IMG/VR virus record: IMGVR_UViG_3300032304_001448
Span: 4,207 to 68,206 of that record
Length of the DNA: 64,000 nucleotides
Strand: one strand, 5' to 3'
Source of the DNA: a virus
Taxonomy: Duplodnaviria; Caudoviricetes
Both the position numbers and the translations under genes were made by a program. How positions within the stretch are numbered: the stretch's first letter is position 1; every line of letters starts with the position of its first letter. Positions 27,598-53,139 of this stretch are shown piece by piece. The notes beneath the pieces were generated by a model. That model had not been told where the DNA came from. It did no database searches and was given only the letters and a program-made list of their open reading frames with translations.

Positions 27598-27631
27598 GAG
27601 GGCTGTGTCCTAACCGTTAGACGACGAGAGC
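27560..27631 (-). tRNA. tRNA-Glu (CTC), no encoded CCA
   Basis: GCTCTCG/CGGGAGT acceptor, CAGCC-CT-CTC-AA-GGCTG anticodon arm, GGGTTCGATTCCC T arm. Confidence 0.9.
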
Positions 27632-27648
27632 AGACTACCCCGATGAAA

Positions 27649-29401: not shown

Positions 29402-29637
29402 TGCACCCAATCCTCCGGTATCTCGACATCCCACTCTCGCCCGTCCATCGGATTTCCGTAGATACGAATATCCTCGGAGAAGAAGTGCTTAACTATGCCA
29501 GTATGGTGAAGGCGCACTACCCAGACGGAGTTTACCCCAGTGCCGGCCGAAACAATTCCATAGTCCACAAACAGAAAAGCATCACCCTGGCCGAGCGGAG
29601 TGTGGACTGAAATCGGTGCTTTGAACTCGTGGATCAT
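29398..29637 (-). CDS. hypothetical protein
   Basis: Coupled ORF; TPLGQGDA, NSVWVV motifs. Confidence 0.65.
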   Translation of the reverse strand: MIHEFKAPISVHTPLGQGDAFLFVDYGIVSAGTGVNSVWVVRLHHTGIVKHFFSEDIRIYGNPMDGREWDVEIPEDWVQ

Positions 29638-29901
29638 CTAATCCCAATACTTCTGCGATCCGGTCAGCTTCCCGCCCATCATGCGTTCGAGCACCGCCTC
29701 GGCATCCCACGCATAGACCCCACCCGCGTAGCACGTCTGGACCCCGAAGAGATCGCTAAACCGCTCACGGTCCAATCCTGCCCCGTTGATCGCTTCATCC
29801 AACTCGGTCCACGGAACATGGTCCATCGGTTCACGCTTCACGTTGCAGCCGATCTGGTGCAGCCGGGGATATTCGGTTGCGGTGTTATTACTCACAGTCA
29901 C
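29638..29901 (-). CDS. hypothetical protein (start uncertain)
   Basis: Natural composition from VSNNT to YWD; GTG overlaps upstream stop. Confidence 0.55.
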   Translation of the reverse strand: MTVSNNTATEYPRLHQIGCNVKREPMDHVPWTELDEAINGAGLDRERFSDLFGVQTCYAGGVYAWDAEAVLERMMGGKLTGSQKYWD

Positions 29902-30407
29902 GCGGCTTTCTTCTTGAGACTCGCGGCGAAACCGCGAGGGCGCTTGTTGTTGCAGTTGACCGCGTGGGTTACCCATCGGCAATTCTTCGGTGAGTATGGG
30001 CCGTATGGATCAATGCGATCTAATTCCAACTCGGGTTTGAATCCGTGCTTCAAAGCCCATTTACGAAAAGGCTCATATTCGGCCCACACCGAATCTACGT
30101 AAATGCCAGTGTTGTAATACCACGTAGCATGATAAGAATCTGGGGCGCACCTCCGGTGAATCTTTTGCCACCGAGAGTAAAGGGGATTCCACGGGTTACG
30201 CTTGTTGTTGGACCAGTCGAGCTTGTCGAAATCAAATACTTTGCGGGCCGTGTCTTGGTATACCTTGTGGTTTTGGCTGCACGGTAAGCAATAAAAAGGG
30301 CGATCCGCTTTTACTGTCCTTGCATACTGGTCAGACCGCATCGGCCGGCGGTGTCCGCAGTCGGGACAAGAAACCGAAACGTATTGGCGGCTCTTCTTAG
30401 GTTTCAT
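29898..30407 (-). CDS. HNH-type endonuclease with N-terminal CxxC zinc ribbon
   Basis: CPDC..CLPC; LELDRIDPYGPYSPKNCRWVT...N.NN. Confidence 0.75.
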   Translation of the reverse strand: MKPKKSRQYVSVSCPDCGHRRPMRSDQYARTVKADRPFYCLPCSQNHKVYQDTARKVFDFDKLDWSNNKRNPWNPLYSRWQKIHRRCAPDSYHATWYYNTGIYVDSVWAEYEPFRKWALKHGFKPELELDRIDPYGPYSPKNCRWVTHAVNCNNKRPRGFAASLKKKAA

Positions 30408-30673
30408 CACCAAAGGTATTTACACGAATAGTATCGAGCGGTTGTCTTATCCGTGGCGGTGTCACACTTGTGACGCGCACGAAAACTAGCGCGGCGTTTC
30501 GGGTTCTTGTGCTTGGTGAAGTCCGACATCGAGGAGTCCCCGAAGTGGACGACTTTCGCGGTGCCAGCCTTCTTGCCCGGCACGAAGACCGACTTCTTCT
30601 TCGCAGCCGGAGTGATGCCCGCCATCTTGCGGGGCTTATACAGCGTGACCTTCTTGCCTTTGTAGGTAGCCAT
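30407..30673 (-). CDS. small basic conserved phage protein
   Basis: VHFGD......KNPKRRASFRARHKC...ARYYSCK motif. Confidence 0.75.
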   Translation of the reverse strand: MATYKGKKVTLYKPRKMAGITPAAKKKSVFVPGKKAGTAKVVHFGDSSMSDFTKHKNPKRRASFRARHKCDTATDKTTARYYSCKYLW

Positions 30674-30810
30674 TAGCGGCGTTTCTTGGCTGCAAAACCC
30701 CCGCGCTTATTTTTCATCTTCGCGTAGGTCTTGGGGTCGACGGTGGACTTGGACTTCGGACGGGACGTGCCCGCCTTCCGACGTTTATTGATGTTTTCGT
30801 ATAGGCTCAT
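30673..30810 (-). CDS. small basic phage protein
   Basis: MSLYENINKRRKAGTSRPKSKST. Confidence 0.6.
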   Translation of the reverse strand: MSLYENINKRRKAGTSRPKSKSTVDPKTYAKMKNKRGGFAAKKRR

Positions 30811-30889
30811 AAGAAATACCGAAAGAAAATGACCGTGGCAAAAGCGGCCCATGCGACGAGCAGAACCAGCGTGATGTCGCGGGGCTCCA

Positions 30890-31114
30890 TCATGCCAATA
30901 GCTCCTTGGTCTCTTGGTCGTGGCGGTCGATGACTGACTGCACCATCGACTTGGCATCGCCGTAGTTGAAGAGGTCGATCAGACCGACGGCGACCCGGAG
31001 GTTGTCGACGATCGAGAGTTCGCGGTCGTAGCTTTCCACGAAGCGATTCTTCCACGCTTGTGCGCCGTCGCTCTCCTCTTTAGTCAGCTTTCTTCTTGTT
31101 CGCTTTTTTAACAT
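30890..31114 (-). CDS. hypothetical protein
   Basis: MLKKRTRR start; coupled to neighbours. Confidence 0.5.
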   Translation of the reverse strand: MLKKRTRRKLTKEESDGAQAWKNRFVESYDRELSIVDNLRVAVGLIDLFNYGDAKSMVQSVIDRHDQETKELLA

Positions 31115-31388
31115 AGATCTTCTTGGTCTCGACGGCCGGCCCGAGGAATGCGGCCAACGCTTCGGCGATCGCGTCGGCAACCGTTTCATCGGCTTTCGCT
31201 TGCGCTTGTTCCGGAGCCCCGCCATCGATCTCGCACTCCCGCTCGGCCATGTCCTCGGCCCCGGCTTCGTAGGCGGCATTCCATGTCAGGTCGAAAAAAC
31301 GGCGCAGCGCCTCCGGGTTCATTTCCGGTTCGGTAGCGAGCCGGGGATTATTGTGCAGGAAAATAGCCCAGAGCTTTTCTTTATTCAT
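31080..31388 (-). CDS. hypothetical protein
   Basis: MNKEKLWAIF start overlapping upstream stop. Confidence 0.6.
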   Translation of the reverse strand: MNKEKLWAIFLHNNPRLATEPEMNPEALRRFFDLTWNAAYEAGAEDMAERECEIDGGAPEQAQAKADETVADAIAEALAAFLGPAVETKKIYVKKANKKKAD

Positions 31389-31762
31389 CGGGATTTCCTC
31401 CGGTTGTTGAGTTTGTGTTCGATCTCGTCGACCAAGTGCTGCACCAGGTAGCAGCATGTCTCCTCGGCTTTGCGGATGTCCTCGCGGACATGGTCACGCA
31501 GGAAGCTCATGGCGACATGGACGCACTCGTGGGTCAGGGTCTTGCTGTTCCCTTTTCTCCGCGACTCGGGCCAGGACTTGAGCCAGACGAAAGCCCGGTT
31601 TGCGTTGGATAGCGCCCAACCCGCATCGGATTCGTCGTCATCCCCGTCAGTAGATAAGGTGTCGGTGAACTTGGTCGCCGAGCGCCAAGCTGAGAGCGCA
31701 TCGCCCCCGACTTTGACCCTGACCTTCAGACCGAAGGTCCGCTCGGTTACCGTCACTTGCAT
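31385..31762 (-). CDS. small zincin-like metallopeptidase-fold protein
   Basis: LTHECVHVA (HExxH) plus downstream EE.CYL. Confidence 0.6.
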   Translation of the reverse strand: MQVTVTERTFGLKVRVKVGGDALSAWRSATKFTDTLSTDGDDDESDAGWALSNANRAFVWLKSWPESRRKGNSKTLTHECVHVAMSFLRDHVREDIRKAEETCCYLVQHLVDEIEHKLNNRRKSR

Positions 31763-31804
31763 AGGAGCAATGTATGGCGTTATTAAACCAAGGCAAGTGG
31801 AGTA

Positions 31805-32047
31805 TCATCGAAGGGTCTTACCAAAGGAGGGGTTGCGGCTGATGATTGTCCGCATGTGCTTACGCAGGACGGCATTAAGCTCATCAAAGATCTCCGAGTC
31901 GACCCGGCTGAATTTGTGGTGCCGGGTCTGGTCGGCATAATCCATGAGATACTGTTTGCAGGCGGCTTTGTTGATGAACTGGGAGACCCGGGTCCGGATC
32001 TGGTCGCGGACAAAGGTGTCGGTAGTGGGTTTTTCAGGAAGCGTCAT
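31805..32047 (-). CDS. hypothetical protein
   Basis: Natural composition; in operon. Confidence 0.6.
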   Translation of the reverse strand: MTLPEKPTTDTFVRDQIRTRVSQFINKAACKQYLMDYADQTRHHKFSRVDSEIFDELNAVLRKHMRTIISRNPSFGKTLR

Positions 32048-32049
32048 GG

Positions 32050-32490
32050 TTAGAAGCTATACGGGTTTTCGTTAATGGACGGCAGGGTCGGAGGTGCCGG
32101 CAGTTTCTTGCCGGGGAGCGGCTGCACCCAGACAAGGCTATGGATCTTGCTATCGGTGCTGACCCGATGGGCCAGAGGGATAAGATGATCCGCTGGCGGG
32201 TCAGCCAGGGGCAGGAAAGCCGCCGCGATGATGAGCGGGGTAGCCCCGATAAGCCAGTGCCAAAAGCGGCGGGGCCAGCGGGTTGCGGGTTTGTCCTGCT
32301 CGGCCAAGGCCAAGGCCAGATAGGGGTAAGCCTCGGTAGGGAGGCAAGCATTATTGGGATCGAATTCTCTATAGTTCATGGTGTTTGGTTCCTTCTTTCT
32401 TTGGTTATGGGTGACGAGACGCGGACGGAAGCGCATACCGTCCTTTGTGACTTCGACTCGCGTTTGGGTCCGCGTCTCGGGTTTGCTCAT
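32050..32490 (-). CDS. hypothetical membrane protein (start may be 32379)
   Basis: Hydrophobic WLIGATPLIIAAAFL segment. Confidence 0.5.
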   Translation of the reverse strand: MSKPETRTQTRVEVTKDGMRFRPRLVTHNQRKKEPNTMNYREFDPNNACLPTEAYPYLALALAEQDKPATRWPRRFWHWLIGATPLIIAAAFLPLADPPADHLIPLAHRVSTDSKIHSLVWVQPLPGKKLPAPPTLPSINENPYSF

Positions 32491-32539
32491 GGTTAATACG
32501 ACAGTGTGTGGTTATTACTCGTTCAAACGAATGTTTGGA

Positions 32540-32770
32540 TCATCCGTTGTCGGGGTGGCTGGCGTGGACTAGCAAGGCATTGAGGATGCCGCGCTTGGTG
32601 GGCTCGACTTCGATTTCGAAGATATCTGCGTCTGCGAAACTGTCGCCTTCGCTCATATCGAAAAAGGTTTGCTTCGCTCGCTCCGCTTCGGCCTTGCTTG
32701 TCGTGTAAGTGTATCCTTGGTGACCGTTGCCGTCAGTCGTGGACACTTTGTAGTATTTGAATTTTTTCAT
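32540..32770 (-). CDS. hypothetical early protein
   Basis: MKKFKYY start after A/C-rich leader. Confidence 0.6.
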   Translation of the reverse strand: MKKFKYYKVSTTDGNGHQGYTYTTSKAEAERAKQTFFDMSEGDSFADADIFEIEVEPTKRGILNALLVHASHPDNG

Positions 32771-32824
32771 TGGTTTTGGGTTCTTTCTACTTGGTTCATG
32801 GTTCAACGCTTCAATGCGTCATAC

Positions 32825-33502
32825 CTAAGAGGCCAGCACATCCTCTTCGGCCTCTTCGCGGGTCTCGAAGGGGCCGTTGGCCTCGCCGTCCGGGAGGCAT
32901 CCCGGTTGGCAGGACCACCAGTAGAAACCGGCGAGTTCCTTCGCGGCCTCTTCGGTAGCCGGGTCGACTTCGGCTTGGTCGTAGTCCCCGGTGAGCGTGT
33001 CTTTGACTGACTCGGCGAGTCGGGCAGAAAGCCAAGTCTCCTCGCCGGCTTCAAGAAACTCGTCAGCCGTTACCTCGAAGATCTCGATTCCGGCGAGTTT
33101 TTTCGCCCGGTGCTTCTCTTGCCACTCCTCGAAGACATCCTCGGCATGGTCGTTATACCATTCGTGGACTTGCTCTTGGATGTAGCTGTAAATCGCAGCG
33201 GGTTTCCACCCGAGTGGCCAGTCCTTATCGTCTTTGCTGTCGAAGCCGGCGTTGTCGAACGCCTCTTCTACTTCTGATCCGTGGAGGTAGAAGATGTCCC
33301 GGATCTCGTTGTTGTAGATCGGCACCGAGCCGTCGACGATCTCGTGAATAGTCCCCGAGTAGTCGAGGTCGTTGCCGAGATCGGGCAGCTTGTCCGGTTC
33401 GTTGTCGTCGCAGTAGCGAAGGAGTTCGTCTTTCACGTCCTCGATCGTGCTGTCGACGCGGTCTTGCAGGGTGTCTTCGATTTCGATGGTTCTTTTGCTC
33501 AT
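32825..33502 (-). CDS. Ocr-like acidic DNA-mimic (anti-restriction) protein with C-terminal extension
   Basis: Very acidic; IHEIVDGSVPIY and AAIYSYIQEQVHEWYNDHAEDVFEEW align by eye with T7 Ocr IHMAADNAVPHY and [22 protein letters not shown]. Confidence 0.55.
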   Translation of the reverse strand: MSKRTIEIEDTLQDRVDSTIEDVKDELLRYCDDNEPDKLPDLGNDLDYSGTIHEIVDGSVPIYNNEIRDIFYLHGSEVEEAFDNAGFDSKDDKDWPLGWKPAAIYSYIQEQVHEWYNDHAEDVFEEWQEKHRAKKLAGIEIFEVTADEFLEAGEETWLSARLAESVKDTLTGDYDQAEVDPATEEAAKELAGFYWWSCQPGCLPDGEANGPFETREEAEEDVLAS

Positions 33503-33531
33503 GGTATTTATGGTTTCTTTTTGTGGTGTTA

Positions 33532-33711
33532 TTACTCACCATCAATTTCGATGGGGAGGGTGAGTTGCGGGTCGGCTTGCTCTTTCCGGGCAAGCTGAAC
33601 GAGGTGAGCGTGACGCATGACGACCGATGTCAGGTGCAGTGCTGCGTCGATGTCGTAGTCATGGGTCGCATTGAATTGCGCGGCGGTGTCGAGGATTAGG
33701 TTGGTTTTCAT
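33532..33711 (-). CDS. small hypothetical early protein (59 aa)
   Basis: ATG just downstream of motif copy 33723; MKTNLILD... Confidence 0.55.
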   Translation of the reverse strand: MKTNLILDTAAQFNATHDYDIDAALHLTSVVMRHAHLVQLARKEQADPQLTLPIEIDGE

Positions 33712-33739
33712 AGTTCACTTCTAAGAGGCCAGCACTTAG

Positions 33740-34168
33740 TCAGAGATACCGGCAGAGGGCATACTCGGCCTCGGTTTTATCGGTAGTGGTAAAAAGGATC
33801 TCGTCGCTCGGTGCCGGTGTTGTGGTTAGCCAGATCCCCTCTTCGTCACTGATGATGTAATGGTTGGTTGTGCCGGTGTTACGTATTGGTTTAGTTATAC
33901 GTGGTGAAGCCACCGCCCGATCGATGTCGGCTAATTGTATTTCGGGAAACAATGTCTCTTCTTCCAGGGTAATCCGGACAATCTCGTCCGCCGGGACATT
34001 GAAGCCCCATCCAGTGTTCCAGCGAATCCGAGGCGACTTCGGGTTATGCTCGCCCCGGTAAGGGACGACGACACCATATTCGTGACGCTCCCCAAGGATG
34101 TTTTTACTCGGCCGGGTAATGCAACGCACCCGGTCGCCGATATTGAATTTGATGAGGTTCTTTTTCAT
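33740..34168 (-). CDS. hypothetical early protein, SH3/KOW-like N-terminus
   Basis: FNIGDRV..; start downstream of motif copy 34182. Confidence 0.6.
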   Translation of the reverse strand: MKKNLIKFNIGDRVRCITRPSKNILGERHEYGVVVPYRGEHNPKSPRIRWNTGWGFNVPADEIVRITLEEETLFPEIQLADIDRAVASPRITKPIRNTGTTNHYIISDEEGIWLTTTPAPSDEILFTTTDKTEAEYALCRYL

Positions 34169-34179
34169 AGTCTTCACTA

Positions 34180-34365
34180 TTAAGAGGCCAGCACTTGATG
34201 ATAGTCCCCTTCCGGAATCCCGGCCCACTCAGCGAGCAGGGGATCACCGAAAAACAGTTCGGGGTTTGATTGCGCGAGGTCTTGAAGCTCGACGATCTCA
34301 GCATAGGAAATGTATTCCTCTTCAATCGCCTCACGTAGTTCCTGAAGTCGGGTTGCGGGGTTCAC
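34180..34365 (-). CDS. small acidic hypothetical protein
   Basis: ISYAEIVELQ...L.EWAGIPE; ends VLAS in motif. Confidence 0.6.
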   Translation of the reverse strand: MNPATRLQELREAIEEEYISYAEIVELQDLAQSNPELFFGDPLLAEWAGIPEGDYHQVLAS

Positions 34366-34673
34366 GGTTTCAGTTTGGCGAGGAGCGCCCGGGCGCGGGT
34401 GATCTCCCCGAGTTCGGAGTCTTTGACACTGCCGGTTGATTTGAGGAGCCGGTCGTCGAGACGTTCGAGGGCGGCAACGCACTCGCGCAGGGACGCGACG
34501 AGTTCTTTATGCTCTTCGAGGATTGCCGGCAAAAGTTCCTCCGCTTCACGGACCAGTTCGATCGCATCATCGATCGGGTCGGGATGATCTTCGTTGGCCT
34601 CCGAATCGAAGAGCGCGACAGCGCCTTCTACCGTGATCCGGAGTTCGTCTAATATGGGTGTTGGTTTGTTCAT
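34362..34673 (-). CDS. hypothetical early protein
   Basis: Helical, ends ARALLAKL. Confidence 0.65.
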   Translation of the reverse strand: MNKPTPILDELRITVEGAVALFDSEANEDHPDPIDDAIELVREAEELLPAILEEHKELVASLRECVAALERLDDRLLKSTGSVKDSELGEITRARALLAKLKP

Positions 34674-34690
34674 GGTTCCTTTCGTTTGGG

Positions 34691-35230
34691 TTAAAGAAGT
34701 TCTCCCTTCTCGTTGAATTCGTAGTCATTGATCTCGCAGTGCTCGGCGAAGTTCTCGTCTTCGTATTGCCCCTCGGCTTCGTTTTGCGCGTCTTCGAGCC
34801 ATGACCGGAAACCGGCTTCGAGGAGTGTTTTGAGGTCAGTCTCCCCGGCGAAGAAGGCTATGCGGAAGCCATCGAGCGCGGACTCATCGGCGCAGTAGCC
34901 GGTCAGCTTGCACTCGCCGGTCCCGCGCAACGTCTCAGGATCATAGGCCCCGAGTTTCTCCAGCCGGGCGGCGATCTCTTCGCGGGTTAACTCGGGAAGT
35001 TCTTCAACTTGTTTACCGATAAAGTTGGCCCAGCTATGCGAGCCCCCGAAGAAGTCGATCGAGTAGTCATGCAGCTTGGCCTCGAAGGCATTGGCGAAGA
35101 CTTGCAGGACGGCCAAGTATTCATCGTCAGACGAAAATCCGACATCGGCTTTGTAATCATACTTCGCCTTCTCTTTGGCGGAGGGACTGAGTTCGTTGAA
35201 TTGGTAGGCTGTCGCTAAGTATTGTCTCAT
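34691..35230 (-). CDS. acidic early protein of a family common in phage early/anti-restriction regions
   Basis: Y.F.ELS..AKEKA N-term, LTGYC.D, N.YEF.E.G C-term. Confidence 0.7.
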   Translation of the reverse strand: MRQYLATAYQFNELSPSAKEKAKYDYKADVGFSSDDEYLAVLQVFANAFEAKLHDYSIDFFGGSHSWANFIGKQVEELPELTREEIAARLEKLGAYDPETLRGTGECKLTGYCADESALDGFRIAFFAGETDLKTLLEAGFRSWLEDAQNEAEGQYEDENFAEHCEINDYEFNEKGELL

Positions 35231-35277
35231 GGGTGTGTTTCGTTTGGGTTAGGTGTTCGTAATTAAGAGGCCAGCAC

Positions 35278-35367
35278 TCAGGTCGGGATGATCCAGTCGA
35301 CGAGTTGCATGAAGACAAGGAGCAGGGAGAGGCCGGCGATGAGGTGATCGAGGGTTGGGTTTTTCAT
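35278..35367 (-). CDS. small membrane peptide
   Basis: MKNPTLDHLIAGLSLLLVFMQLVDWIIPT; ATGA overlap, GGAGG SD. Confidence 0.45.
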   Translation of the reverse strand: MKNPTLDHLIAGLSLLLVFMQLVDWIIPT

Positions 35368-35657
35368 TCGGCACCTCCTTCGGCCTTGGCGATTGCTGCG
35401 CGGATTTGCGCGGCCAACTCTTCGGGAGCATCCCCGCCAGCCCAATATCCATCGACCGCTTCTAATGCCGCGAGTAGGTCGGGCGCGGCGGCGATGAGAT
35501 GCGTGTTCGCTGTCCACTCTTTCAGAGGTATGCGGTCAGACGTGCAGCGTTCGGTGGATCGTTCCGAGTCGACGGTTGCAACGTCCAAGCCGTCACCGTT
35601 GCGGATGTTTTGCCCTTCGTAAAACCAAGGGCCGGGAGTGTGTTGGTTGTTGCTCAT
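35364..35657 (-). CDS. HTPGPW...ANxxLIAAAPDLL family phage protein (paralog 2)
   Basis: Signature motifs present. Confidence 0.75.
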   Translation of the reverse strand: MSNNQHTPGPWFYEGQNIRNGDGLDVATVDSERSTERCTSDRIPLKEWTANTHLIAAAPDLLAALEAVDGYWAGGDAPEELAAQIRAAIAKAEGGAE

Positions 35658-35974
35658 TCGGCACCTCCCACTTTGGCGATCGCGGATTTAGCCCGTTCGA
35701 GCCATGATGGGTCGCCGTCATCTCCCCAACTTCCAACCACTTCGATCGCCTCTTCGAGCGCATCGAGGAGGTCGGGGGCGGCGGCGATGAGTCGGGCGTT
35801 GGCAACGCCACCGTCATCCTCGGCAACGTATTGCCCAGATCCCCGGGGGAATGCGTTGCTTGGGACATTGTGCGCGTGCACGTTCGGGACGATCGTCCGG
35901 CCTTGCAGGTCAGTGATTTGCCCCTCGGAGTTCACGGTCCAAGGGCCGGGAGTGTGTTGGGTGTATTTGTTCAT
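35654..35974 (-). CDS. HTPGPW...ANARLIAAAPDLL family phage protein (paralog 1)
   Basis: Signature motifs; start MNKYTQ downstream of motif copy 35981. Confidence 0.75.
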   Translation of the reverse strand: MNKYTQHTPGPWTVNSEGQITDLQGRTIVPNVHAHNVPSNAFPRGSGQYVAEDDGGVANARLIAAAPDLLDALEEAIEVVGSWGDDGDPSWLERAKSAIAKVGGAE

Positions 35975-36009
35975 CGAATTAAGAGGCCAGCAGTGTGGTG
36001 TTATTACGT

Positions 36010-36519
36010 TTAGTGAAGAAGTTCCCCGGCATACCCGGAGAAGTATTTGCCCCGGGCGCATCCGAGGAGGTCGGCATAGTTGTGGAAATCGAATTGGTTT
36101 CCGTGATCCCGGATATACTCCACCCGGTCGCGGTCGCTGTAGCAGTCGCACCACACTCGTTGGGCGGTCTCGTCTTCGAGTTCCGAGAAGTCGTCTTCGT
36201 CGACGACCGGGTAGTCTTCGAGCTTATCGGCGATCTCTTTCGCCTTCTCATGCTCCGGGGACCCGGCGCGGACCGACAACGATTCCCACCATCCGCAGGC
36301 CCAATGGCCAAACCGGTCGATGGATACGTTGTCACTCTCGCCGCCGAGTTCCCGGAGCGCCGAACGAAAGTTGCTCTCGGTCAGGCAATCCGAGTCCCGG
36401 GACTGGGTGAGTAGGCAAAGCCACTCAGGTTCCGGAATCGCGCCGGCATAGTTGTCGAGCGAGTCCCAACCACTCGGGTTGGAGACGATTTCTTTCAGAG
36501 GAGTAAGGTAGTTGGTCAT
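36010..36519 (-). CDS. acidic hypothetical early protein
   Basis: RDSD.L.ESNF, FGHWACGW.E, LEDYPVVDE motifs. Confidence 0.7.
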   Translation of the reverse strand: MTNYLTPLKEIVSNPSGWDSLDNYAGAIPEPEWLCLLTQSRDSDCLTESNFRSALRELGGESDNVSIDRFGHWACGWWESLSVRAGSPEHEKAKEIADKLEDYPVVDEDDFSELEDETAQRVWCDCYSDRDRVEYIRDHGNQFDFHNYADLLGCARGKYFSGYAGELLH

Positions 36520-36591
36520 GAGTTTTGTGGTGTTATGCGGTTACGGAGTTAATACTGTCAAGATTAAGAGGCCAGCATTGCGAGAGGGAGG

Positions 36592-36789
36592 TCAGATGGC
36601 ATCGCGGAGAAACTTGCCACTCCAGTGCATACGATCTTCAACGTCCCACATTCCGGGACCAACACGGACAGGTGTGTAGATATACCAGCCAGTGTGCGAG
36701 TCGCAGATTCTTGCGTTGCGCCCGTATTTGGCTTCGATCTTTTTTGCATAGCGGCGGGACTCGTTGATGCGCTGTAGTTTGATATTCAT
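36592..36789 (-). CDS. hypothetical early protein
   Basis: Start downstream of motif copy 36800. Confidence 0.55.
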   Translation of the reverse strand: MNIKLQRINESRRYAKKIEAKYGRNARICDSHTGWYIYTPVRVGPGMWDVEDRMHWSGKFLRDAI

Positions 36790-36797
36790 GTTCAATA

Positions 36798-37190
36798 TTA
36801 AGAGGCCAGCACTTCGTCGGAGGTCTCAGCGTGATAGTGCTCTAAGGCCCAGTCCAGATGGAACCGGACCTGCTCCTCGCCGAACAAATGCAAGGCATCC
36901 GTGAGCAAATCGATGAACGCTTCCCGGGCATCTTCGCCGGGCGTGTAGTCCAAGATCACTCGGGCCACTTTCCTCGTGCGTTTGATTCTCTGGTCCTTGG
37001 TTAGGATGTCCGGGTCGACCAGTTCGTATTCGATCCATCTGTCTTTAACCGCTTCAAACCAGTCGTTTTTGTCATAGGCTTGCCAGTCGTCGGACCGGTC
37101 ACGGTTTATCTCTTCAAGGATCTGGTCCAGTGTCCACTCCTCGATCTGCCCGGTCGGGATATATCTGAGCTTGTATGTTTCAAGGTTCAT
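36798..37190 (-). CDS. hypothetical early protein
   Basis: WTL..ILEEINRDRSD.W..YD..DW; DLLTD.LH; ends VLAS in motif. Confidence 0.65.
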   Translation of the reverse strand: MNLETYKLRYIPTGQIEEWTLDQILEEINRDRSDDWQAYDKNDWFEAVKDRWIEYELVDPDILTKDQRIKRTRKVARVILDYTPGEDAREAFIDLLTDALHLFGEEQVRFHLDWALEHYHAETSDEVLAS

Positions 37191-37200
37191 GGTGCGTGAT

Positions 37201-37419
37201 TCAGGCTGCGGTTCTCGGATCAAATCCAAGTTCGTCAATGATCCGGATGCGGTCTTCGTCGTGTAAATTGTCGAGATCGAGGTATTCGACGAGCCAATCA
37301 GTTTGATTCGGCGTTTGTTCGATGATCCAATCAGCCCAAAATTCGGGTTCATTGGTGATGTCGTAAATGAGTTGCCGTCTCACGAGGCTGGATATTTTGT
37401 CTTGCTGTTCAGGTGTCAT
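37201..37419 (-). CDS. acidic hypothetical early protein
   Basis: MTPEQQ start after A/C leader. Confidence 0.6.
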   Translation of the reverse strand: MTPEQQDKISSLVRRQLIYDITNEPEFWADWIIEQTPNQTDWLVEYLDLDNLHDEDRIRIIDELGFDPRTAA

Positions 37420-37466
37420 GGTAGTTTTAGGTTGGAGGTTTAAGTTCACTATTAAGAGGCCAGCAC

Positions 37467-37694
37467 TCAGCGCGGCCAGCGGTCCACCGCCGCCTGAAAG
37501 CGTTCGTTGCTCACTCGGGCACCGTTCGGGTGCACCGCTTGAATGGTGCGTCCCCGGGCAGTGATCCGGACGAATCGACTCGGCTTGTCGCCGGGATAGC
37601 ACCGGACCCATTGCCCGGTCTGCAACCGGAGTTGTCCATTGTAGAGCGCCACAAGGACACTGTTCGAAAGTAGGAGTGTAGGTAGGTATTTCAT
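37467..37694 (-). CDS. hypothetical early protein
   Basis: GQLRLQ.GQWV...PSRFV motif. Confidence 0.6.
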   Translation of the reverse strand: MKYLPTLLLSNSVLVALYNGQLRLQTGQWVRCYPGDKPSRFVRITARGRTIQAVHPNGARVSNERFQAAVDRWPR

Positions 37695-37698
37695 GGGA

Positions 37699-38007
37699 TT
37701 ACTTGTGGTCGCTTTCGAGGAGATCCCATCCGCCCGAGTTACGGAACCGGCGCGAGATCCAGTGAATGTGCGATGCGAGATCATAGGTGAGAAACTCGTA
37801 AGGCCGGTCGTCGAGATCCTGCACGGCACTCAAAGGGATCCCGGCGAGGATGAGATCCTTGGCGATCTCGTCGATGATGTTGTCGGGTAGCTTGATCGGT
37901 CCGTCTTCAGGGTAGTTGTCGCCGTGGTTGCGGAAAACCTCCGCCGCCGCCCGGGCCAACTTGGATTTGCTTCCAGTTTCTTTGATCGCTTTACCGTATT
38001 TGTTCAT
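37699..38007 (-). CDS. hypothetical early protein
   Basis: ORF with AACCATG start context. Confidence 0.6.
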   Translation of the reverse strand: MNKYGKAIKETGSKSKLARAAAEVFRNHGDNYPEDGPIKLPDNIIDEIAKDLILAGIPLSAVQDLDDRPYEFLTYDLASHIHWISRRFRNSGGWDLLESDHK

Positions 38008-38015
38008 GGTTTCGA

Positions 38016-38201
38016 TTAATGTTGGTTGAAGGTGAAGGTTTCGGATTGCTCACGGACGAAGCTGAAATCCCATCCGCATCCCCGGCACCGGAGGTGAATC
38101 CGGTTGCCAAGTTGCCCGAGGATCTGAGCGTCCGCGCTGTCGCACACCGGGCAATAAGCCGGGTCAGTGTCTTGTTCGTATTGGAGTGTTTCGATGTTCA
38201 T
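38016..38201 (-). CDS. small zinc-ribbon protein
   Basis: CPVC...LGQLG....RCRGCG. Confidence 0.65.
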   Translation of the reverse strand: MNIETLQYEQDTDPAYCPVCDSADAQILGQLGNRIHLRCRGCGWDFSFVREQSETFTFNQH

Positions 38202-38210
38202 GGTTCGTAA

Positions 38211-38396
38211 TTAAGAGGCCAGCAGTATCGCGTTCATGCGTTCCTTCAGAAGATCGGCGGCGAGCCGGGCATCGTAGTAAGCGTCGACGCAATCGACCGT
38301 GATACCTTTGCGGAGTGTATCTTTGACCAAGCTGCGAGCGCCATTGGAGGCGAGCACCTCTTGGATCTCCCGATCGATTTCAGTGAGTGATTTCAT
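38211..38396 (-). CDS. small hypothetical early protein
   Basis: Bounded by motif copies; ends LLAS. Confidence 0.6.
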   Translation of the reverse strand: MKSLTEIDREIQEVLASNGARSLVKDTLRKGITVDCVDAYYDARLAADLLKERMNAILLAS

Positions 38397-38423
38397 GGTT
38401 CGTAATTAAGAGGCCAGCAGGGT

Positions 38424-38825
38424 TTATTCTTCCAAGGCACCTTGGGCGCTGGCCACTAAGCCGTCCCAAAAGGCTTCGCTCGCCGCATTTTCGTAGGCCT
38501 GGCAGATTTCGTCCTCCTCTTCAGGCTCTAAGTCTGAAATGTCGTGACGACTCTCGAAGCAATCGGCCAGCAGTTCGCGGGGCGTATATCCGTCCGCATA
38601 CTCTCCGGACAGATTCGGCGCGGCATAGGCATCGGCGACTTCCGGATCCCCTTCGTCGTAGCCTCGCAGGAATTCCCGGGCGGCATCTTTCCCGCCCCGA
38701 CTCGAAGCGCGACCGCCCCAAGTGTCTTGCGAGACCCATTCCGCGCCATTCTTTCCGTCACGCTTTCCGATTTTCTCGGCACGTTGCAAAGCTAGTGTGA
38801 ATTTTTGGTCAGTGATTGTGTTCAT
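38424..38825 (-). CDS. acidic hypothetical early protein
   Basis: PNLSGEYAD..TP..L; EIC.AYE. Confidence 0.65.
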   Translation of the reverse strand: MNTITDQKFTLALQRAEKIGKRDGKNGAEWVSQDTWGGRASSRGGKDAAREFLRGYDEGDPEVADAYAAPNLSGEYADGYTPRELLADCFESRHDISDLEPEEEDEICQAYENAASEAFWDGLVASAQGALEE

Positions 38826-38850
38826 GGTGTTCATCTTTAAGAGGCCAGCA

Positions 38851-38927
38851 GGTTCTTGTTTCAGGGTTCTTGTTTCAGGGTTCTTGTTTCAGGGTTCTTG
38901 TTTCAGGGTTCAGGGTTCAGGGTTCAG
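38851..38927. repeat. tandem repeat (GGTTCTTGTTTCAG)x4 + (GGTTCAG)x3
   Basis: Read directly from sequence. Confidence 0.95.
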
Positions 38928-39151
38928 GCAATTTTAGCCGCAATCTCGGGAAGAATTTCGCGCCAATGGTTCGCGATCCAAGCCGCCGCAATATCAGCCG
39001 CCGCAATCTCTTGTTCGTGAGTTTCGGCTTTATTCAAATGGTCCCAACAACCGAAAACTGCCGCCGAATTGAATAGCCGATCGGCTTCAAAGTCATCGCA
39101 AGAGAGGTCAAAAGGGAGAGCCGAATTGAGGATGTATTGATTGAGTTTCAT
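38924..39151 (-). CDS. hypothetical early protein
   Basis: Start downstream of motif copy 39166. Confidence 0.55.
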   Translation of the reverse strand: MKLNQYILNSALPFDLSCDDFEADRLFNSAAVFGCWDHLNKAETHEQEIAAADIAAAWIANHWREILPEIAAKIA

Positions 39152-39193
39152 AGTGTTCAAATATAAAGAGGCCAGCGGTCCGGGCTTAGTGGT

Positions 39194-39445
39194 TCAGGCT
39201 ACAAAAACTGCCGGGTAGTCTTTGGGGTATTGGCCTTTCACATATCTCCCGCCTGACGGTCCGTTTTCCCCGGCGATATATCCAAGCCAGCGTTCCCGGT
39301 TGAAGTTGGGATTCTCTTTCGCGAAGTATTCGGCGAAATCGTTGATGATTTCCCGGACGTGACGTTCAGGTGATGCCGGGACATTCGTCGCTTCCAAGGA
39401 TGCTTTGAGAATCTCGGCGATTTTGATGAAGTGTTTCTTGGTCAT
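39194..39445 (-). CDS. conserved small phage early protein
   Basis: MTKKHFIKIAEIL...FAKENPNFNRERW motif. Confidence 0.7.
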   Translation of the reverse strand: MTKKHFIKIAEILKASLEATNVPASPERHVREIINDFAEYFAKENPNFNRERWLGYIAGENGPSGGRYVKGQYPKDYPAVFVA

Positions 39446-39505
39446 TACATAAACAAGAGGCCAGCAGTCGGTTGAAATAACACCATAACAGAGTAAACTG
39501 GAGCG

Positions 39506-40012
39506 ATGGGTAAACCCTCTCTCCCGGTCGATTGGGATGTCGTCAAAGGTCTTTATTTGCAAGGCGTCCCGGTTGCGACTCTTTCGGAACGCTTCGGGAT
39601 CAACGCAAATACCTTACGTGCAAAAGCTTCCAAGAAAGGATGGAACGCGATCGTCGGAACAGAGAAGGAACGCAAAGAGCAGATTACAGAGAAAAGCACG
39701 GCGATCGCTCGGGACATTTGGGCAGAGCGCCGGGAAGCTATCCGGGAAAACATCCACACCATTGGAAGCCGAATGACTACCTACGCTTCGCAACTACCTG
39801 AAGACCAACTGCTTGCCAAGGCTGATAAGGTAAAGATAGCGACAGAGATAGCGGGGAAGATTGTTGGCCTCGATCGACAAGAGGACAAGAACGTCGTAAA
39901 CATCGCACTGTTAGGGAGTTACACCGATTCAGGGAACATGGTGCAAGGTATACAAAGTGACACAATAGAGGGGGATTACTCTGTCGGACACAAAGATTCC
40001 GAACCCTTGTGA
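39506..40012 (+). CDS. terS: terminase small subunit
   Basis: N-terminal HTH (DWDVVKGLY..G.....LSERFGI...TLR..ASKKGW), helical middle, GLD...NVVNIALL tail. Confidence 0.65.
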   Translation: MGKPSLPVDWDVVKGLYLQGVPVATLSERFGINANTLRAKASKKGWNAIVGTEKERKEQITEKSTAIARDIWAERREAIRENIHTIGSRMTTYASQLPEDQLLAKADKVKIATEIAGKIVGLDRQEDKNVVNIALLGSYTDSGNMVQGIQSDTIEGDYSVGHKDSEPL

Positions 40013-40166
40013 CACCACCACCCACCCCACCAGAGTAGGGGGCCAGGCCGCGGTTCGCCCCTAGATCTATCATTATCATGGCTTGTAAATTTTTTGGCCC
40101 AAAATGGAATTATTAACTTTTCTCGGGGCCGGCAGGAAACTCCCCAGCGTGATGCTATATTAACAA

Positions 40167-40235
40167 CGCAGGAAAGGCTGGTGCCCCGACGGGTCTCATA
40201 AGCCTGTTGTCCGAGTTCGATCCTCGGTCCTGCAA
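40167..40235 (+). tRNA. tRNA-Met(CAT)-like, initiator-type C1:A72 mismatch, reduced D arm
   Basis: GCAGGA/TCCTGC acceptor, CTCATAA loop, CCGAG-TTCGATC-CTCGG T arm; TGcTATATT extended -10 upstream. Confidence 0.65.
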
Positions 40236-40312
40236 AATGATGGGGGTCTGAGTTCCGGAGAGATAAACCGGGTGGCCAGTTTACTGGGGAAACCCAGACC
40301 CCATCCCACTTT

Positions 40313-40531
40313 ATGAAAGCTACCCTGGAGTTCAATCTACCCCAAGACGACGAGGCCCTGACCGACGCCCGAAAGGGCTCCGACTGGCGATGGGCGGTCG
40401 ACGACCTCTTCAACTACCTCAAGTCGGAGACCAAGCACGCCGACCACTCGGCCGAGGAATACGCGATCTTCGACAAGGTCCGCGAGAAACTGGCAGAGAT
40501 CCTCGAAGAGCGGGATCTGAGGCGTTGGTAA
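40313..40531 (+). CDS. conserved small phage protein
   Basis: MKATLEFNLP.D...A..G..W motif. Confidence 0.75.
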   Translation: MKATLEFNLPQDDEALTDARKGSDWRWAVDDLFNYLKSETKHADHSAEEYAIFDKVREKLAEILEERDLRRW

Positions 40532-40680
40532 TGTCCGGCTGGCTGATCGCGGCGACCGGCGTGGCCTACGCTTGGGTTGCGATTGAGATGGCATTATCCG
40601 GTAAGTGGCCGTTGGCGATCGTGTGGGCCGGCTATGCTTTCGCCCAGATCGGGCTCTATATCGTCAGCCGGCAGGGCTGA
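40531..40680 (+). CDS. small two-TM membrane protein
   Basis: MSGWLIAATGVAY...WAGYAFAQIGL; TAATG overlap. Confidence 0.65.
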   Translation: MSGWLIAATGVAYAWVAIEMALSGKWPLAIVWAGYAFAQIGLYIVSRQG

Positions 40681-40693
40681 AAGCTCGATTTCA

Positions 40694-41010
40694 AGGGAAC
40701 TTCCTACCAAGTTCCCTAGGAGTTCCCAGGGAAGTTCCCACAGTTAAGTCGTTGATTTTCTTCATACTTACACCGAAAGGGAACTTGGGAACTTCCCCTA
40801 TACTTTTTCTTTTAAGAAAAGTATATAGGAGGGGACGCCCGTCCCCCCCGCGAGCGCGGACGTATACTCCCCGCGGGGAGGGCTCTTCCCCCCTTTTTGA
40901 GTTCCCAAGTTCCCATCGGGTCACAAACTGTTGTCCGACAGGGGTTTAACTGTGGGAACTCCCCCCTGGAACTTCGAGGGACGGGGAACTTCCCATACCC
41001 AGTTCCCCTG
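40694..41010. repeat. nested inverted repeats of GGGAACT units; putative replication origin
   Basis: 40729-40747 vs 40946-40964 (18/19 inverted); 40779-40793 vs 40900-40914 (perfect inverted); non-coding, between convergent operons. Confidence 0.6.
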
Positions 41011-41289
41011 CACCTTGTAGCCCTGTATCATGTTCCTCTGTATCCTGCCCCGAGGAGTAGAAAATGCTGAGAAGTTTTTGCGACTAAAGGGCAAATGAGA
41101 ATAACAACTCAGCAAAAACTATGCGTCGGACGTTTTCCACTTAAATAAGATCTCCTCTGTCGGGAGCCTATCTGAGTCCTTCCGGATGGGTTTGGCTTAA
41201 ATAAACCTGACACAAAACACCCTTAGTTTCTTACAAGACCGTCTCTGACGCTACACTGTGGCAGGGTTCCCGAAGCCCGTTTCGGGAAC

Positions 41290-41715
41290 CTAGACCCACC
41301 GGACCATGATCCCCGCTTCATGGAACATGGTGCGTGCTGCGGAGAAGCTCTCCTCCCATCGGGGAACCGTCTCGGCCGGGCAGTAGACTTCTTTGATGCC
41401 TGCTTGGACGATAGCAGCCGCACAGTGGGCGCACGGCTGGAAGGGGTAGACGAAGATCGAGTGGCCCTGGAGGGGCTCCTTGGCCCCGAGGATGGCATTC
41501 ATCTCGGCGTGCAAAGTGAACAACAGTTTTGAAGATCTATCGCTAATTCTATCCACCCGATCCTCGACCCCGCGGGGGAACCCGTTGAAGCCGACTGAGG
41601 CGATCGATCGATCTGGCCGGACGATGACGGCCCCGACTTGGCTACTCGGGTCCTTGGACCACGTTGCTACATGGCTGGCTAAGTTAATAAACCTCGCGGT
41701 CCATTTGGCGTTCAT
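41290..41715 (-). CDS. dCMP deaminase
   Basis: SKDPSSQVGA, GFNGFPRG, HAEMNA, PCAHC zinc motifs. Confidence 0.9.
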   Translation of the reverse strand: MNAKWTARFINLASHVATWSKDPSSQVGAVIVRPDRSIASVGFNGFPRGVEDRVDRISDRSSKLLFTLHAEMNAILGAKEPLQGHSIFVYPFQPCAHCAAAIVQAGIKEVYCPAETVPRWEESFSAARTMFHEAGIMVRWV

Positions 41716-41828
41716 AGTTTTGAGGCGGCGGTGGCAGGACTCGACACCTGCTTTTGTCACATATTCTCGTGTTATTTTGTGACGCTCCGTTGTCCGGCCG
41801 CGTGTCCATCCACGCCGCACCGCCATAT

Positions 41829-52833: not shown

Positions 52834-53139
52834 TCACCCTTTCCGGTGTTTCCGGAGCAGGGCAGCTATGGTTTTCTGCATTTGTGGATCGAGGCTGTCG
52901 GCAGCGCGTTCTTCCTTGGTGTCGGCCTTGTAGACAGCCAATTCTTCGGCTACGCGGGACAGCGTCCCGTCTTTGTCTTCTGCGGCTAGGTAGGCGGAGG
53001 TCGCTTCGCGGATCAGTGAACTGACATTTGTCTGCTTGGCTGCGGCCAAAAGGCGCAGGGCAGAAGAGGTCATTTTACTCTCTACGTAGCTCACTCGTTC
53101 AGTGCTGGCCTTTAATCGACCGTGTTTTGTTGTGCTCAT
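52834..53139 (-). CDS. RHH-like regulator (candidate repressor) downstream of integrase
   Basis: RVSY.E......L..LA......VSSLIREA. Confidence 0.6.
   Translation of the reverse strand: MSTTKHGRLKASTERVSYVESKMTSSALRLLAAAKQTNVSSLIREATSAYLAAEDKDGTLSRVAEELAVYKADTKEERAADSLDPQMQKTIAALLRKHRKG

Follow-up and report, generated by a model that had tools for sequence, protein, structure and literature searches.

Two described phage systems resemble the array reported here. Promoter-early stem-loop (PeSL) cassettes of T4-type phages (Arbiol et al. 2010, PMC2839356) hold genes without known function, located in a hyperplastic region and flanked by short repeated regulatory elements that bound insertions, deletions and replacements between close relatives; exchange is proposed to occur by recombination of one copy with another, no dedicated recombinase taking part. 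The PeSL element, as described there, is about 100 bp and combines a sigma-70-like -35/-10 promoter, a stem-loop terminator and a Shine-Dalgarno sequence (PMC2839356). The present array shares the arrangement, but its element is 24 nt long, with no sigma-70 boxes, stem-loop or Shine-Dalgarno sequence. Start-associated sequences (SAS and ESAS) of Cluster K mycobacteriophages (Pope et al. 2011, PMC3203893; PMC12699233) are likewise asymmetric, occur in about 10-20 copies of one orientation just before ATG codons, only in the non-structural half of the genome, and sometimes contain the stop codon of the upstream gene. SAS function is still unverified as of 2025, and a comparison with stoperators is drawn (PMC3203893). 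The SAS is described as having a Shine-Dalgarno core, AGGAG, 3-7 bp from the start and as being conserved across subclusters (PMC3203893; PMC12699233), whereas the present core lacks complementarity of the Shine-Dalgarno kind, is 6-59 nt away from the start and gives way to unrelated elements in sister phages.

The window, a stretch of 64,000 nucleotides, makes up most of the 68-kb genome of an uncultured freshwater (lake) phage. A scan of the window found 13 exact copies of GCTGGCCTCTT, on the minus strand only, from 32827 to 39465; this reproduces exactly the coordinates in the preliminary description, which had reported 13 conserved copies of single orientation within 6.6 kb. The full 68,206-bp record also holds 13 copies on the minus strand and none on the opposite strand. 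With one mismatch permitted there are 15 matches against 1.5 expected, and 15 was reached in 0 of 100 shuffles. All 13 copies lie at gene boundaries, usually close before an ATG as previously described: core end and start codon are 6-14 nt apart at nine sites and 34-56 nt apart at four. Four genes do end within the motif as (V/L)LAS-stop (ORFs ending at 32825, 34180, 36798 and 38211). The earlier label of an early region was assumed; in position, the array shares its strand with the replication genes and lies downstream of them. Its genes have no informative Pfam or PHROG match and, in the first set of relatives, are common only to the sister phage with the same motif. The features are given below, with the present phage as G000, the sister phage as G001 and further relatives as G002 and G003; for copy 3 the distance was counted from the second in-frame ATG, the putative start.

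32540..39468, minus strand: cassette array, 13 junction elements and about 16-20 small genes without known function
39455..39465, minus strand: copy 1, first in the array; core present, AAT..GAAC box absent
39194-39445, minus strand: copy 1 gene, 83 aa; ATG 9 nt past the core
39166..39176, minus strand: copy 2; ATG at 14 nt; gene 38924-39151, 75 aa; cassette private to the present genome relative to G001
38839..38849, minus strand: copy 3; preceded by a 14-nt tandem repeat; gene 38424-38834, with in-frame ATGs 4 and 13 nt from the core
38408..38418, minus strand: copy 4; ATG at 11 nt; gene 38211-38396, 61 aa, terminating inside copy 5; metagenome joints at 38420/38421
38213..38223, minus strand: copy 5; ATG at 11 nt; gene 38016-38201, 61 aa; metagenome joint at 38224
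37454..37464, minus strand: copy 6; 34-nt leader without Shine-Dalgarno; gene 37201-37419, 72 aa; upstream flank as in G001, downstream flank different from it
36800..36810, minus strand: copy 7; ATG at 10 nt; gene 36592-36789, 65 aa; preceding gene terminates within the motif; cassette absent from one metagenome contig (joint 36539>36792)
36566..36576, minus strand: copy 8; 46-nt leader; gene 36010-36519, 169 aa, whose G002 orthologue has a hairpin and a Shine-Dalgarno in place of the motif
35981..35991, minus strand: copy 9; ATG at 6 nt, on the conserved purine position
35654-35974, minus strand: copy 9 gene, 106 aa; first of two tandem paralogues, with the N-terminus conserved among paralogues from that Met
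35265..35275, minus strand: copy 10; 34-nt leader; gene 34691-35230, 179 aa, product 98% identical in G001; metagenome joints at 35253-35257
34182..34192, minus strand: copy 11; ATG at 13 nt; gene 33740-34168, 142 aa; upstream flank common to G001, downstream gene different
33723..33733, minus strand: copy 12; ATG at 11 nt; gene 33532-33711, 59 aa, whose G002 and G003 orthologues have a Shine-Dalgarno and no motif
32827..32837, minus strand: copy 13, last in the array; core only, overlapping the stop codon of a 225-aa gene (32825-33502); GAACCAT repeats and then gene 32540-32770 lie downstream

Computed over 32 sites in three genomes (G000, G001 and G009), the full element is asymmetric, about 24 nt long and reads A-S-T-GCTGGCCTCTT-AAT-W-N-Y-GAAC, a fully invariant 11-nt core joined at fixed spacing to a second conserved box. 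The core is preceded by A at -3 (28/32) and T at -1 (31/32), and followed by A11 (29/32), A12 (24/32), T13 (23/32) and Y16 (29/32); the GAAC part is conserved at G17 (28/32), A18 (24/32) and A19 (25/32). Ten extra sites in L155 and L156 all have G17, and the GAAC box is kept even where the ATG is 30-46 nt off. One further site departs from the pattern.

53100..53116, plus strand: reversed near copy with one base missing, inside a 121-aa gene; G000 only

This near copy, previously placed at 53101 in opposite orientation, is real but not conserved beyond the present genome, being absent both from G001, which shares the array, and from G002, where the 121-aa protein is 96% identical. It is probably not part of the motif system. 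The gene had been called repressor-like, a label that is not supported: it matches nothing in Pfam or PHROG.

The relation of the element to start codons is constrained. Among the 32 sites, none of the 21 with an ATG within 16 nt of the core has a Shine-Dalgarno, and 4 of the 11 with leaders of 23-59 nt have an ordinary one between core and ATG. In the arrays of G000 and G001, a Shine-Dalgarno precedes 0/17 motif-proximal ORFs vs 9/24 others (Fisher p = 0.005). Two genes that follow a motif copy have orthologues in G002, G003 and G008 with a AGAAAGGAA-type Shine-Dalgarno instead, which means that Shine-Dalgarno sequences are in use in the host and that the motif makes one unnecessary. Most other genes of the present phage also lack a Shine-Dalgarno, which weakens any argument from its absence at motif genes.

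These data bear on a translation start signal, which is what the Cluster K start-associated sequences have been proposed to be. The preliminary description had offered a phage-specific promoter or start-associated signal, and the part that stands is a signal tied to gene 5' ends. A direct role in translation would suit the 21/32 sites just upstream of an ATG and the substitution for the Shine-Dalgarno of orthologues, but it fits poorly with the 23-59 nt spacing at 11/32 sites and the Shine-Dalgarno sequences lying in between at four of these. In one gene family the spacing between motif and ATG is 6 nt in G000 and G001 but 27 nt in L156, other genes of the phage have neither Shine-Dalgarno nor motif, and the CCTCTT of the core is not complementary to the anti-Shine-Dalgarno end of 16S rRNA, being of the same sense. 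We regard this reading as highly improbable.

The distance also has a lower limit. The smallest confirmed value, supported by N-terminal conservation among paralogues, is 6 nt, which puts the A of the ATG exactly on the conserved purine at position 17. No confirmed start codon lies upstream of that purine, and the closest ATG at the L155 and L156 sites is no nearer than 9 nt. Most likely the motif also marks where the mRNA of each gene begins. We tentatively favour, ahead of the alternatives though with less than even confidence, a compact promoter unlike sigma-70 that gives leaderless or short-leader mRNAs and that, as in PeSL cassettes, doubles as a recombination crossover point. The element would set the 5' end of every cassette mRNA, most likely as such a promoter, with transcription starting on the conserved purine 6 nt past the core; on that start, the 17 nt upstream would read GCTGGCCTCTTAATWNY. 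Such mRNAs would carry no leader or one of 0-10 nt, and would need no Shine-Dalgarno. Both the promoter role and the start position are what we infer from sequence.

Promoters of T7-like single-subunit RNA polymerases have a conserved block some 17 nt before a purine start. The likeness extends to a contiguous block, a few conserved transcribed bases and many copies of one orientation before genes; the difference is that no single-subunit polymerase gene was detected in the present genome. Profile searches of the genome, Pfam and PHROG included, detected no phage RNA polymerase, as had been remarked from the letters, and no sigma factor, DNA-binding protein or motif-binding factor. Against a promoter, and as the preliminary description had noted of its dissimilarity to a sigma70 box, no -35 element is conserved and positions -12 to -7 relative to the proposed start read CCTCTT. 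The geometry is like that of a single-subunit polymerase promoter, yet no such enzyme was detected in the genome. A search of RNA runs for the array sequence found 0 runs containing it.

At the same junctions, other relatives have hairpin palindromes that are particular to each genome. Junctions within any one genome are uniform and of its own type, G009 having two types arranged in blocks, and the core genes of the sister phages with hairpins are nearly identical. Hairpins at these junctions are not obviously compatible with one shared transcription mechanism. They are, on the other hand, typical RNA-processing or stability elements, as would suit a signal acting in RNA, whereby an endoribonuclease or RNA-binding protein of phage or host reads the motif in a polycistronic transcript and cleavage near Y16/G17 frees monocistronic mRNAs with very short leaders. 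Such a signal would cover the same positional facts (a fixed purine, no ATG before it, no proximal Shine-Dalgarno) and would need no unusual polymerase. Folding of motif RNA gave no consistent structure (z-scores of -0.63 to +1.51 at 12/13 sites, with a significant hairpin at copy 13 only), and a single-stranded, unstructured motif is like many endonuclease sites. No candidate nuclease was found in the genome, however, and an invariant, GC-rich 11-nt core would be unusually specific for known general RNases. Processing of this kind is rather unlikely.

The junction elements could instead be operators, at which a phage DNA-binding protein silences or times cassette expression. The L5 repressor of Cluster A mycobacteriophages binds 13-bp stoperators, which are asymmetric, of one orientation to transcription and located in short intergenic gaps, and whose sequences differ between related phages. 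The present sites are similarly asymmetric, of one orientation and intergenic or overlapping stop codons, and the different, partly palindromic elements of sister phages are as expected of heteroimmune binding specificities. Stoperators, however, are genome-wide and have a known cognate repressor; here the sites occupy 6.6 kb only, no copy lies at a recognisable promoter, and no helix-turn-helix or repressor-type protein was detected in the genome. The region beside the integrase is 96-99% identical in the motif-free G002. Operators would also leave the Shine-Dalgarno absence and the lower limit on ATG distance unexplained. We consider them quite unlikely.

The motif marks the edges of cassettes that are swapped, lost or reordered among related phages. 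The evidence can be summarised as (i) flanks in G000 and G001 agree on one side of a copy and disagree on the other, with 10/22 homology-block ends of the two arrays within 6 nt of a copy (about 1 expected); (ii) cassettes found in a single genome sit between two copies (after copies 4, 7, 9, 15 and 16 in G001, after copy 2 in G000); (iii) lake metagenome contigs have cassettes deleted, replaced and reordered at the motif, 7 of the 30 joint ends listed from four runs lying within 10 nt of a copy (5% expected) and two back-joints reordering cassettes there. Comparison of relatives for gain or loss at the motif, suggested in the preliminary description, placed breakpoints at the copies in both G001 blocks and metagenome joints. 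Some exchanges within the array fall at junctions without the motif. In mosaic phages generally, breakpoints are expected at gene boundaries anyway.

In integron attC arrays, cassettes of one gene each follow one another in a single orientation, with a repeated site between them. The small cassettes here share that layout, and the phage encodes an integrase-like gene (PHROG integrase family, E = 1e-11); a joint in an integron-like array had been suggested, with the encoded tyrosine recombinase as agent. The joint for cassette gain, loss and reordering stands; the agent does not. The integrase is 99% identical in G002, with 0 motif copies, and 44% identical in G001, with 17, so its identity does not track the motif and it does not drive the exchange. 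Integron-like action of the encoded recombinase on the motif is contradicted by these identities. The sites lack an attC-like folded structure, no IntI-type integrase lies beside the array, and the integrase gene is 14 kb away. Every copy being on one strand would also suit a programmed nick as in T5/phiKMV-like phages, but a nick site gives no reason for a fixed distance to start codons. An attC-like site or a nick is scarcely credible.

The element is the only sequence common to otherwise unrelated cassettes. Within the promoter and crossover reading, general homologous recombination between copies, in one genome or in co-infecting relatives, would delete, insert, replace or reorder cassettes. 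The same breakpoints, the uniform junction type of each genome and the two types in blocks in G009 could reflect a passive linker with no part in expression, which would persist because copies are the only places where cassettes can be exchanged and would be kept uniform by gene conversion. This is very unlikely, since the invariant 11-nt core, the second box at fixed spacing, the strict relation to start codons and the missing Shine-Dalgarno would not arise from a pure homology patch. Two more arrays from a metagenome contain new and reordered cassettes.

The junction motif (type A) is a real and highly non-random feature of this phage genome (G000). An exact search for GCTGGCCTCTT recovers 13 copies in the window, all on the minus strand and confined to 6.6 kb, as the preliminary description had it, and the full 68,206-bp record likewise holds 13 copies on the array strand and none on the opposite strand. 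Tolerating one mismatch raises the number of matches in the window to 15, against 1.5 expected. When 32 sites, taken from three genomes, are aligned, they yield an asymmetric consensus of 24 nt, A-S-T-GCTGGCCTCTT-A-A-T-W-N-Y-G-A-A-C, in which a pyrimidine-purine step stands at a constant 6 nt past the invariant 11-nt core (Y16 at 29/32 sites, G17 at 28/32); G17 is kept in 10/10 further sites from two metagenome arrays (L155, L156). Four upstream genes enter the motif and terminate at its TAA or TAG, again as had been noticed. The first and last array copies contain the core and lack the AAT..GAAC box, both in G000 and in the sister phage that shares the array (G001). The array copies, asymmetric and in one orientation, lie within the non-structural part of the genome. 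The reversed near copy at 53100 is indeed present, but only in G000 among the genomes compared. Literature matches to the motif strings occurred only as primers in unrelated papers. The ends of the 68,206-bp IMG/VR record, of which the window covers bases 4207-68206, overlap by 123 bp, and the array is placed as follows.

Genome layout around the array
Plus strand: terminase, tail and head-decoration-like genes, with the gene for a 3640-aa protein
16058-26980, plus strand: the 3640-aa protein gene, a large polyvalent virion protein
Minus strand, beyond the small-gene region: conserved distal block of methyltransferase-domain protein, HNH endonuclease and tRNA-Glu
27559-27632, minus strand: tRNA-Glu (CTC; 61 bits with Rfam), which closes the minus-strand cluster
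32540-39468, minus strand: the array of small cassette genes
40167-40235, plus strand: candidate tRNA-Met-like sequence, called by ARAGORN only, inside ORF 39976-40413
Minus strand, between primase and the small-gene region with the array: non-coding block of GGGAACTTCCC repeats
Minus strand, after the integrase-like gene: helicase/DUF2800 gene, split DNA polymerase A and primase
53193-54419, minus strand: integrase-like gene (PHROG integrase, E = 1e-11; no Pfam match)

No match to the array came up among 50,697 phage records (INPHARED) searched at the nucleotide level. Alignments of the DNA polymerase and the terminase, used in two scans across 185,579 species genomes, revealed no prophage relative. 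Lake-water metagenomes contain G000 sequence, and its weak similarities point towards cyanophages. Relatives were drawn from IMG/VR (13 loci by a DNA polymerase search, 49 by a terminase search); the genomes examined were G000-G003, G008 and G009, all six complete or nearly so, along with several fragments. G001, whose polymerase is 98% identical, carries 14 exact and three one-mismatch copies in the syntenic region. The motif has no copy in G002, G003 or G008, and G009 has two copies, downstream of six palindromes. At the corresponding kind of junction the other relatives have hairpin palindromes, peculiar to each genome, which share a TTGTyCG...CGrACAA outline and whose stem changes compensate between genomes. 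These palindromes are perfect and their copies nearly identical within a genome; some lie 5-7 nt before an ATG without a Shine-Dalgarno sequence.

Junction palindromes and hairpin-junction regions in related phages
L010 palindrome: TTGTCCGGAATTCCGGACAA
G009 palindrome: TTGTCGGAATTCCGACAA
G003 palindrome: GTCCGatcACCGGAC
G008 palindrome: TTGTTCGCATCCGAACAA
G002 palindrome: GTCCGTTAACGGAC
G005 palindrome: GAGTCGCAAACGCGACTC
L010, 17211-20768: hairpin junctions
L017, 16670-20412: hairpin junctions
L020, 16225-20231: hairpin junctions
G009, array: hairpin junctions

Since one gene family can have the type-A motif upstream in one genome and, in another, a hairpin, a Shine-Dalgarno sequence or both, junction type is a property of the genome or array and not of the gene. 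Across IMG/VR, 17-mer matches come from G001 only, plus three single-copy matches with an identical flank, and blastn matches none of these three contigs to G000. Only 3/54 stretches, all of them G001, have more than one copy of the 14-mer, and the other 51 have one copy each. A stricter 23-nt pattern retrieved two more arrays from one JGI metagenome, with three copies (L155) and seven copies (L156).

Comparison of G000 with G001 places gene exchange at the motif. At the pairs G000 copy 6/G001 copy 6 and G000 copy 11/G001 copy 13 (G000 copies numbered from 39465 down to 32827), one flank is identical and the opposite flank unrelated, and cassettes private to one of the two genomes are bounded exactly by two copies; gene gain and loss at the motif, as looked for in related genomes, is found. 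Of the 22 homology-block ends in the array, ten are no more than 6 nt from a copy and 14 no more than 23 nt, where random placement would put about one of the 22 within 6 nt. Motif-free junctions also host some exchanges, for example around gene 34362-34673. When contigs of four lake-metagenome runs were aligned to 32000-40000, 7/30 ends among the 15 joints listed of 36 lay within 10 nt of a copy, against 5% expected. One listed joint deletes the cassette between copies 7 and 8, and two listed back-joints put gene 32838-33586 ahead of copy 10 or copy 6. Such contigs are assemblies and so show arrangements, not mechanisms; the two back-joints, which recombination into mini-circles could give, may equally be reordered genomes. 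In L156, known cassettes occur in changed order together with new ones. Judged from these comparisons of sequence, the assignment of the motif as a cassette boundary is well supported.

The preliminary description had offered the motif as a recombination joint on which the encoded tyrosine recombinase might act. The joint stands as regards the cassette boundaries, and integrase-mediated shuffling is contradicted by the distribution of the integrase, whose identity to that of G000 is 99% in G002, a genome without copies, and only 44% in G001, which has 17. An integron has an integrase specific for its repeated site, and attC sites that form folds from imperfect inverted repeats; here, in contrast, the integrase does not follow the motif and the sites have no attC-like fold. 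Variation in the motif is not mirrored by the genes next to the integrase; the neighbouring 121-aa protein is 96% identical in G002 and 80% in G001. This gene had been called repressor-like, a label that the domain searches do not bear out, as neither it nor 34 small minus-strand ORFs gave a helix-turn-helix, sigma-factor or polymerase match.

Strong Shine-Dalgarno sequences (GAAAGGAGGTGA, AGAAAGGAA) stand ahead of several genes in these phages, including internal array genes, and the host therefore employs them. At type-A sites with an ATG no more than 16 nt from the core (range 6-16 nt) a Shine-Dalgarno sequence is present in 0/21, compared with 4/11 sites with leaders of 23-59 nt. Counted by ORF in G000 and G001, it precedes 0/17 motif-proximal genes versus 9/24 others (p = 0.005), and two motif-preceded genes have orthologues in motif-free genomes that do possess one. 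This argument is weakened by the fact that most other phage genes lack a Shine-Dalgarno sequence too, yet the contrast within the array persists despite the genome-wide scarcity. Across the whole window almost all late and replication genes are without one and many starts lie in an (A)ACC-ATG context, yet a few genes have a very strong one (GAAAGGAGGTGA).

The shortest verified distance from core to ATG is 6 nt, at which the A of the ATG coincides with purine 17. Five paralogues support this start through their conserved N-terminus (MNKYTQHTPGPW / MSNNQHTPGPW); the same family has a 27-nt leader in L156, which implies that the distance is not set by translation. RNA folding gave z scores of -0.63 to +1.51 at 12/13 sites, the sole folder being copy 13 (z = -3.27), and no consistent structure across the 13 sites. 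Among RNA runs, no match carrying the array stretch is listed. Together, the Shine-Dalgarno pattern, the start distances and the absence of consistent RNA structure suggest that the motif would place the 5' end of the mRNA at position 17 or immediately before it, giving predicted leaders of 0-10 nt for which a Shine-Dalgarno sequence would not be needed. A promoter is the simplest cause of this 5'-end pattern, and a sequence-specific RNA-processing site, the main rival, fits it almost as well. We consider it plausible, though not quite probable, that the motif is a compact promoter, one whose mRNAs have a short leader or none, and that it doubles as a recombination linker.

The minus strand at 35364-35974 encodes two paralogues in tandem (three in G001), which have in common the N-terminus M..QHTPGPW and, centrally, an ARLIAAAPDLL motif. 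For the second paralogue, the Shine-Dalgarno sequence, GGGAGGTG, lies in the stretch that encodes the conserved C-terminus of the first (...VGGAE).

The motif had been said to resemble neither a sigma-70 box nor a Shine-Dalgarno sequence, and this is borne out: the core has no Shine-Dalgarno sequence, and neither of the two sigma-70-like sites that a consensus scan finds in 27000-42000 (6.5 expected) is at a motif. No conserved -35 element was seen upstream of the copies. The large ORFs of the genome gave no RNA polymerase family match, which agrees with the earlier remark that no phage RNA polymerase is visible. Readings as sigma-54, ECF or extended -10 promoters were rejected on misfitting spacings, judged by eye against consensus sequences. 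What we take to be likenesses to boxA (antitermination, ..CTCTTA..), Chi (GCTGG..) and the cyanobacterial Pho box were also set aside, as none accounts for 13 gene-start copies or for the absence from sister phages.

The closest known system is that of the PeSL cassettes of T4-type phages. In these, repeated early promoter and stem-loop elements flank genes of unassigned function, and recombination between these elements gives rise to indels and mini-circles (PMC2839356). The type-A motif is alike in flanking uncharacterised genes in a hyperplastic region and in bounding differences between close relatives, and differs in having no sigma-70-like -35/-10 promoter by consensus scan and no adjacent stable stem-loop terminator at 12/13 sites. 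The start-associated sequences of Cluster K mycobacteriophages have a Shine-Dalgarno core 3-7 bp from the start and a function still unverified (PMC3203893, PMC12699233). Both elements are asymmetric, in one orientation and just upstream of an ATG, the type-A motif being also restricted to the non-structural region; its core, however, has no Shine-Dalgarno sequence and lies 6-16 nt from the start at 21/32 sites and 23-59 nt at 11/32. Stoperators of Cluster A (L5-type) phages, bound by a known repressor, occur across both genome arms, including at the early lytic promoter. They share asymmetry and orientation with the motif, whereas all 13 motif copies lie within 6.6 kb; no helix-turn-helix protein that could serve as cognate repressor was recognised in G000, a search that a protein of novel fold would escape. 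In promoters of T7-like single-subunit polymerases, a purine start is immediately preceded by a conserved block of some 17 nt. The 11-nt core and 6 nt preceding G17 resemble this in geometry alone, the start at G17 being predicted, but no single-subunit RNA polymerase gene was recognised in G000.

An N4-type virion RNA polymerase, first suspected because of the 3640-aa protein, was rejected on sequence evidence. This protein has no PDB sequence match and no informative protein-atlas match; tblastn against phage records matches only in a lysin-like domain of about 210 aa (residues 1930-2141) common to cyanophage polyvalent proteins, and Pfam gives weak Kinase-PolyVal and LPD38 matches and nothing else. 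Its homologues number 20 among 1.84 billion representatives, all giant proteins, and a HEXXH metallopeptidase-like motif lies in the conserved core near residue 1630. Among relatives, both ends of the protein are conserved and the central ~2000 residues are exchanged as a block, being 96-100% identical between G000 and G001 and below 40% or absent in six relatives that lack the type-A array. Outside the array this is the only co-variation with motif type found, and it may reflect a single event of shared ancestry. The same co-variation underlies a further reading, to which we give very little credence: that the motif is an immediate-early promoter whose reader, a specificity factor or polymerase activity, would be injected within the 3640-aa protein, with lineage-specific pairs of reader and element. 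If this were true, anti-defence cassettes would be expressed leaderless before translation of any phage gene, and cassette exchange would be limited to phages with the same junction element.

Accessory regions of phages hold many anti-defence and host-takeover genes, and their fast turnover is only partly understood. The array is a clean natural example, in which a 24-nt element with no attached recombinase marks exchange points among lake phages, and at these same positions sister phages have other junction elements, each specific to its genome. Should the motif be a promoter for leaderless mRNAs, it would be a compact expression signal unlike sigma-70, with a reader worth finding. It can also be used to extract uncharacterised cassettes from metagenomes, a single pattern search having yielded two further arrays.

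A second junction motif, TAATAACNCC, consists of a double stop codon followed by CNCC and occurs 12 times in the window against 0.08 expected, always on the local coding strand, mostly between a stop codon and the following ATG, in the late and replication modules. Its fourth base is relative-specific (CTCC in G003, CGCC in L010, CCCC in G009).

Copies of the second junction motif
4048, 11366, 21094, 58018: plus strand, TAATAACNCC
29881, 31776, 33525, 35997, 44154, 49094, 50182, 52379: minus strand, TAATAACNCC

The non-coding block at 40690-41000 has about ten GGGAACTTCCC / GGGAAGTTCCC palindromic repeats flanking an AT-rich centre, with two-way terminator-like hairpins at 40828-40891, and looks like a replication origin or complex operator; its repeat word also occurs in three related contigs (L013, L014, L017). 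ORF 39976-40413 is about a quarter to a third conserved among relatives. The HNH endonuclease gene at 29898-30413 on the minus strand (PHROG, E = 1e-23) is without a counterpart in G001, G002 and G003, in which its neighbours are 86-99% conserved, and probably represents the insertion of a free-standing mobile endonuclease. Directly upstream of copy 3, in the region 38851-38925, there is a tandem repeat of 14 nt in 5.4 copies, which reads CTGAAACAAGAACC on the coding strand. GAACCAT heptad repeats follow the last type-A copy in the region 32770-32800, and a similar run, GAACCATGAACCATG, follows one junction element in every relative.
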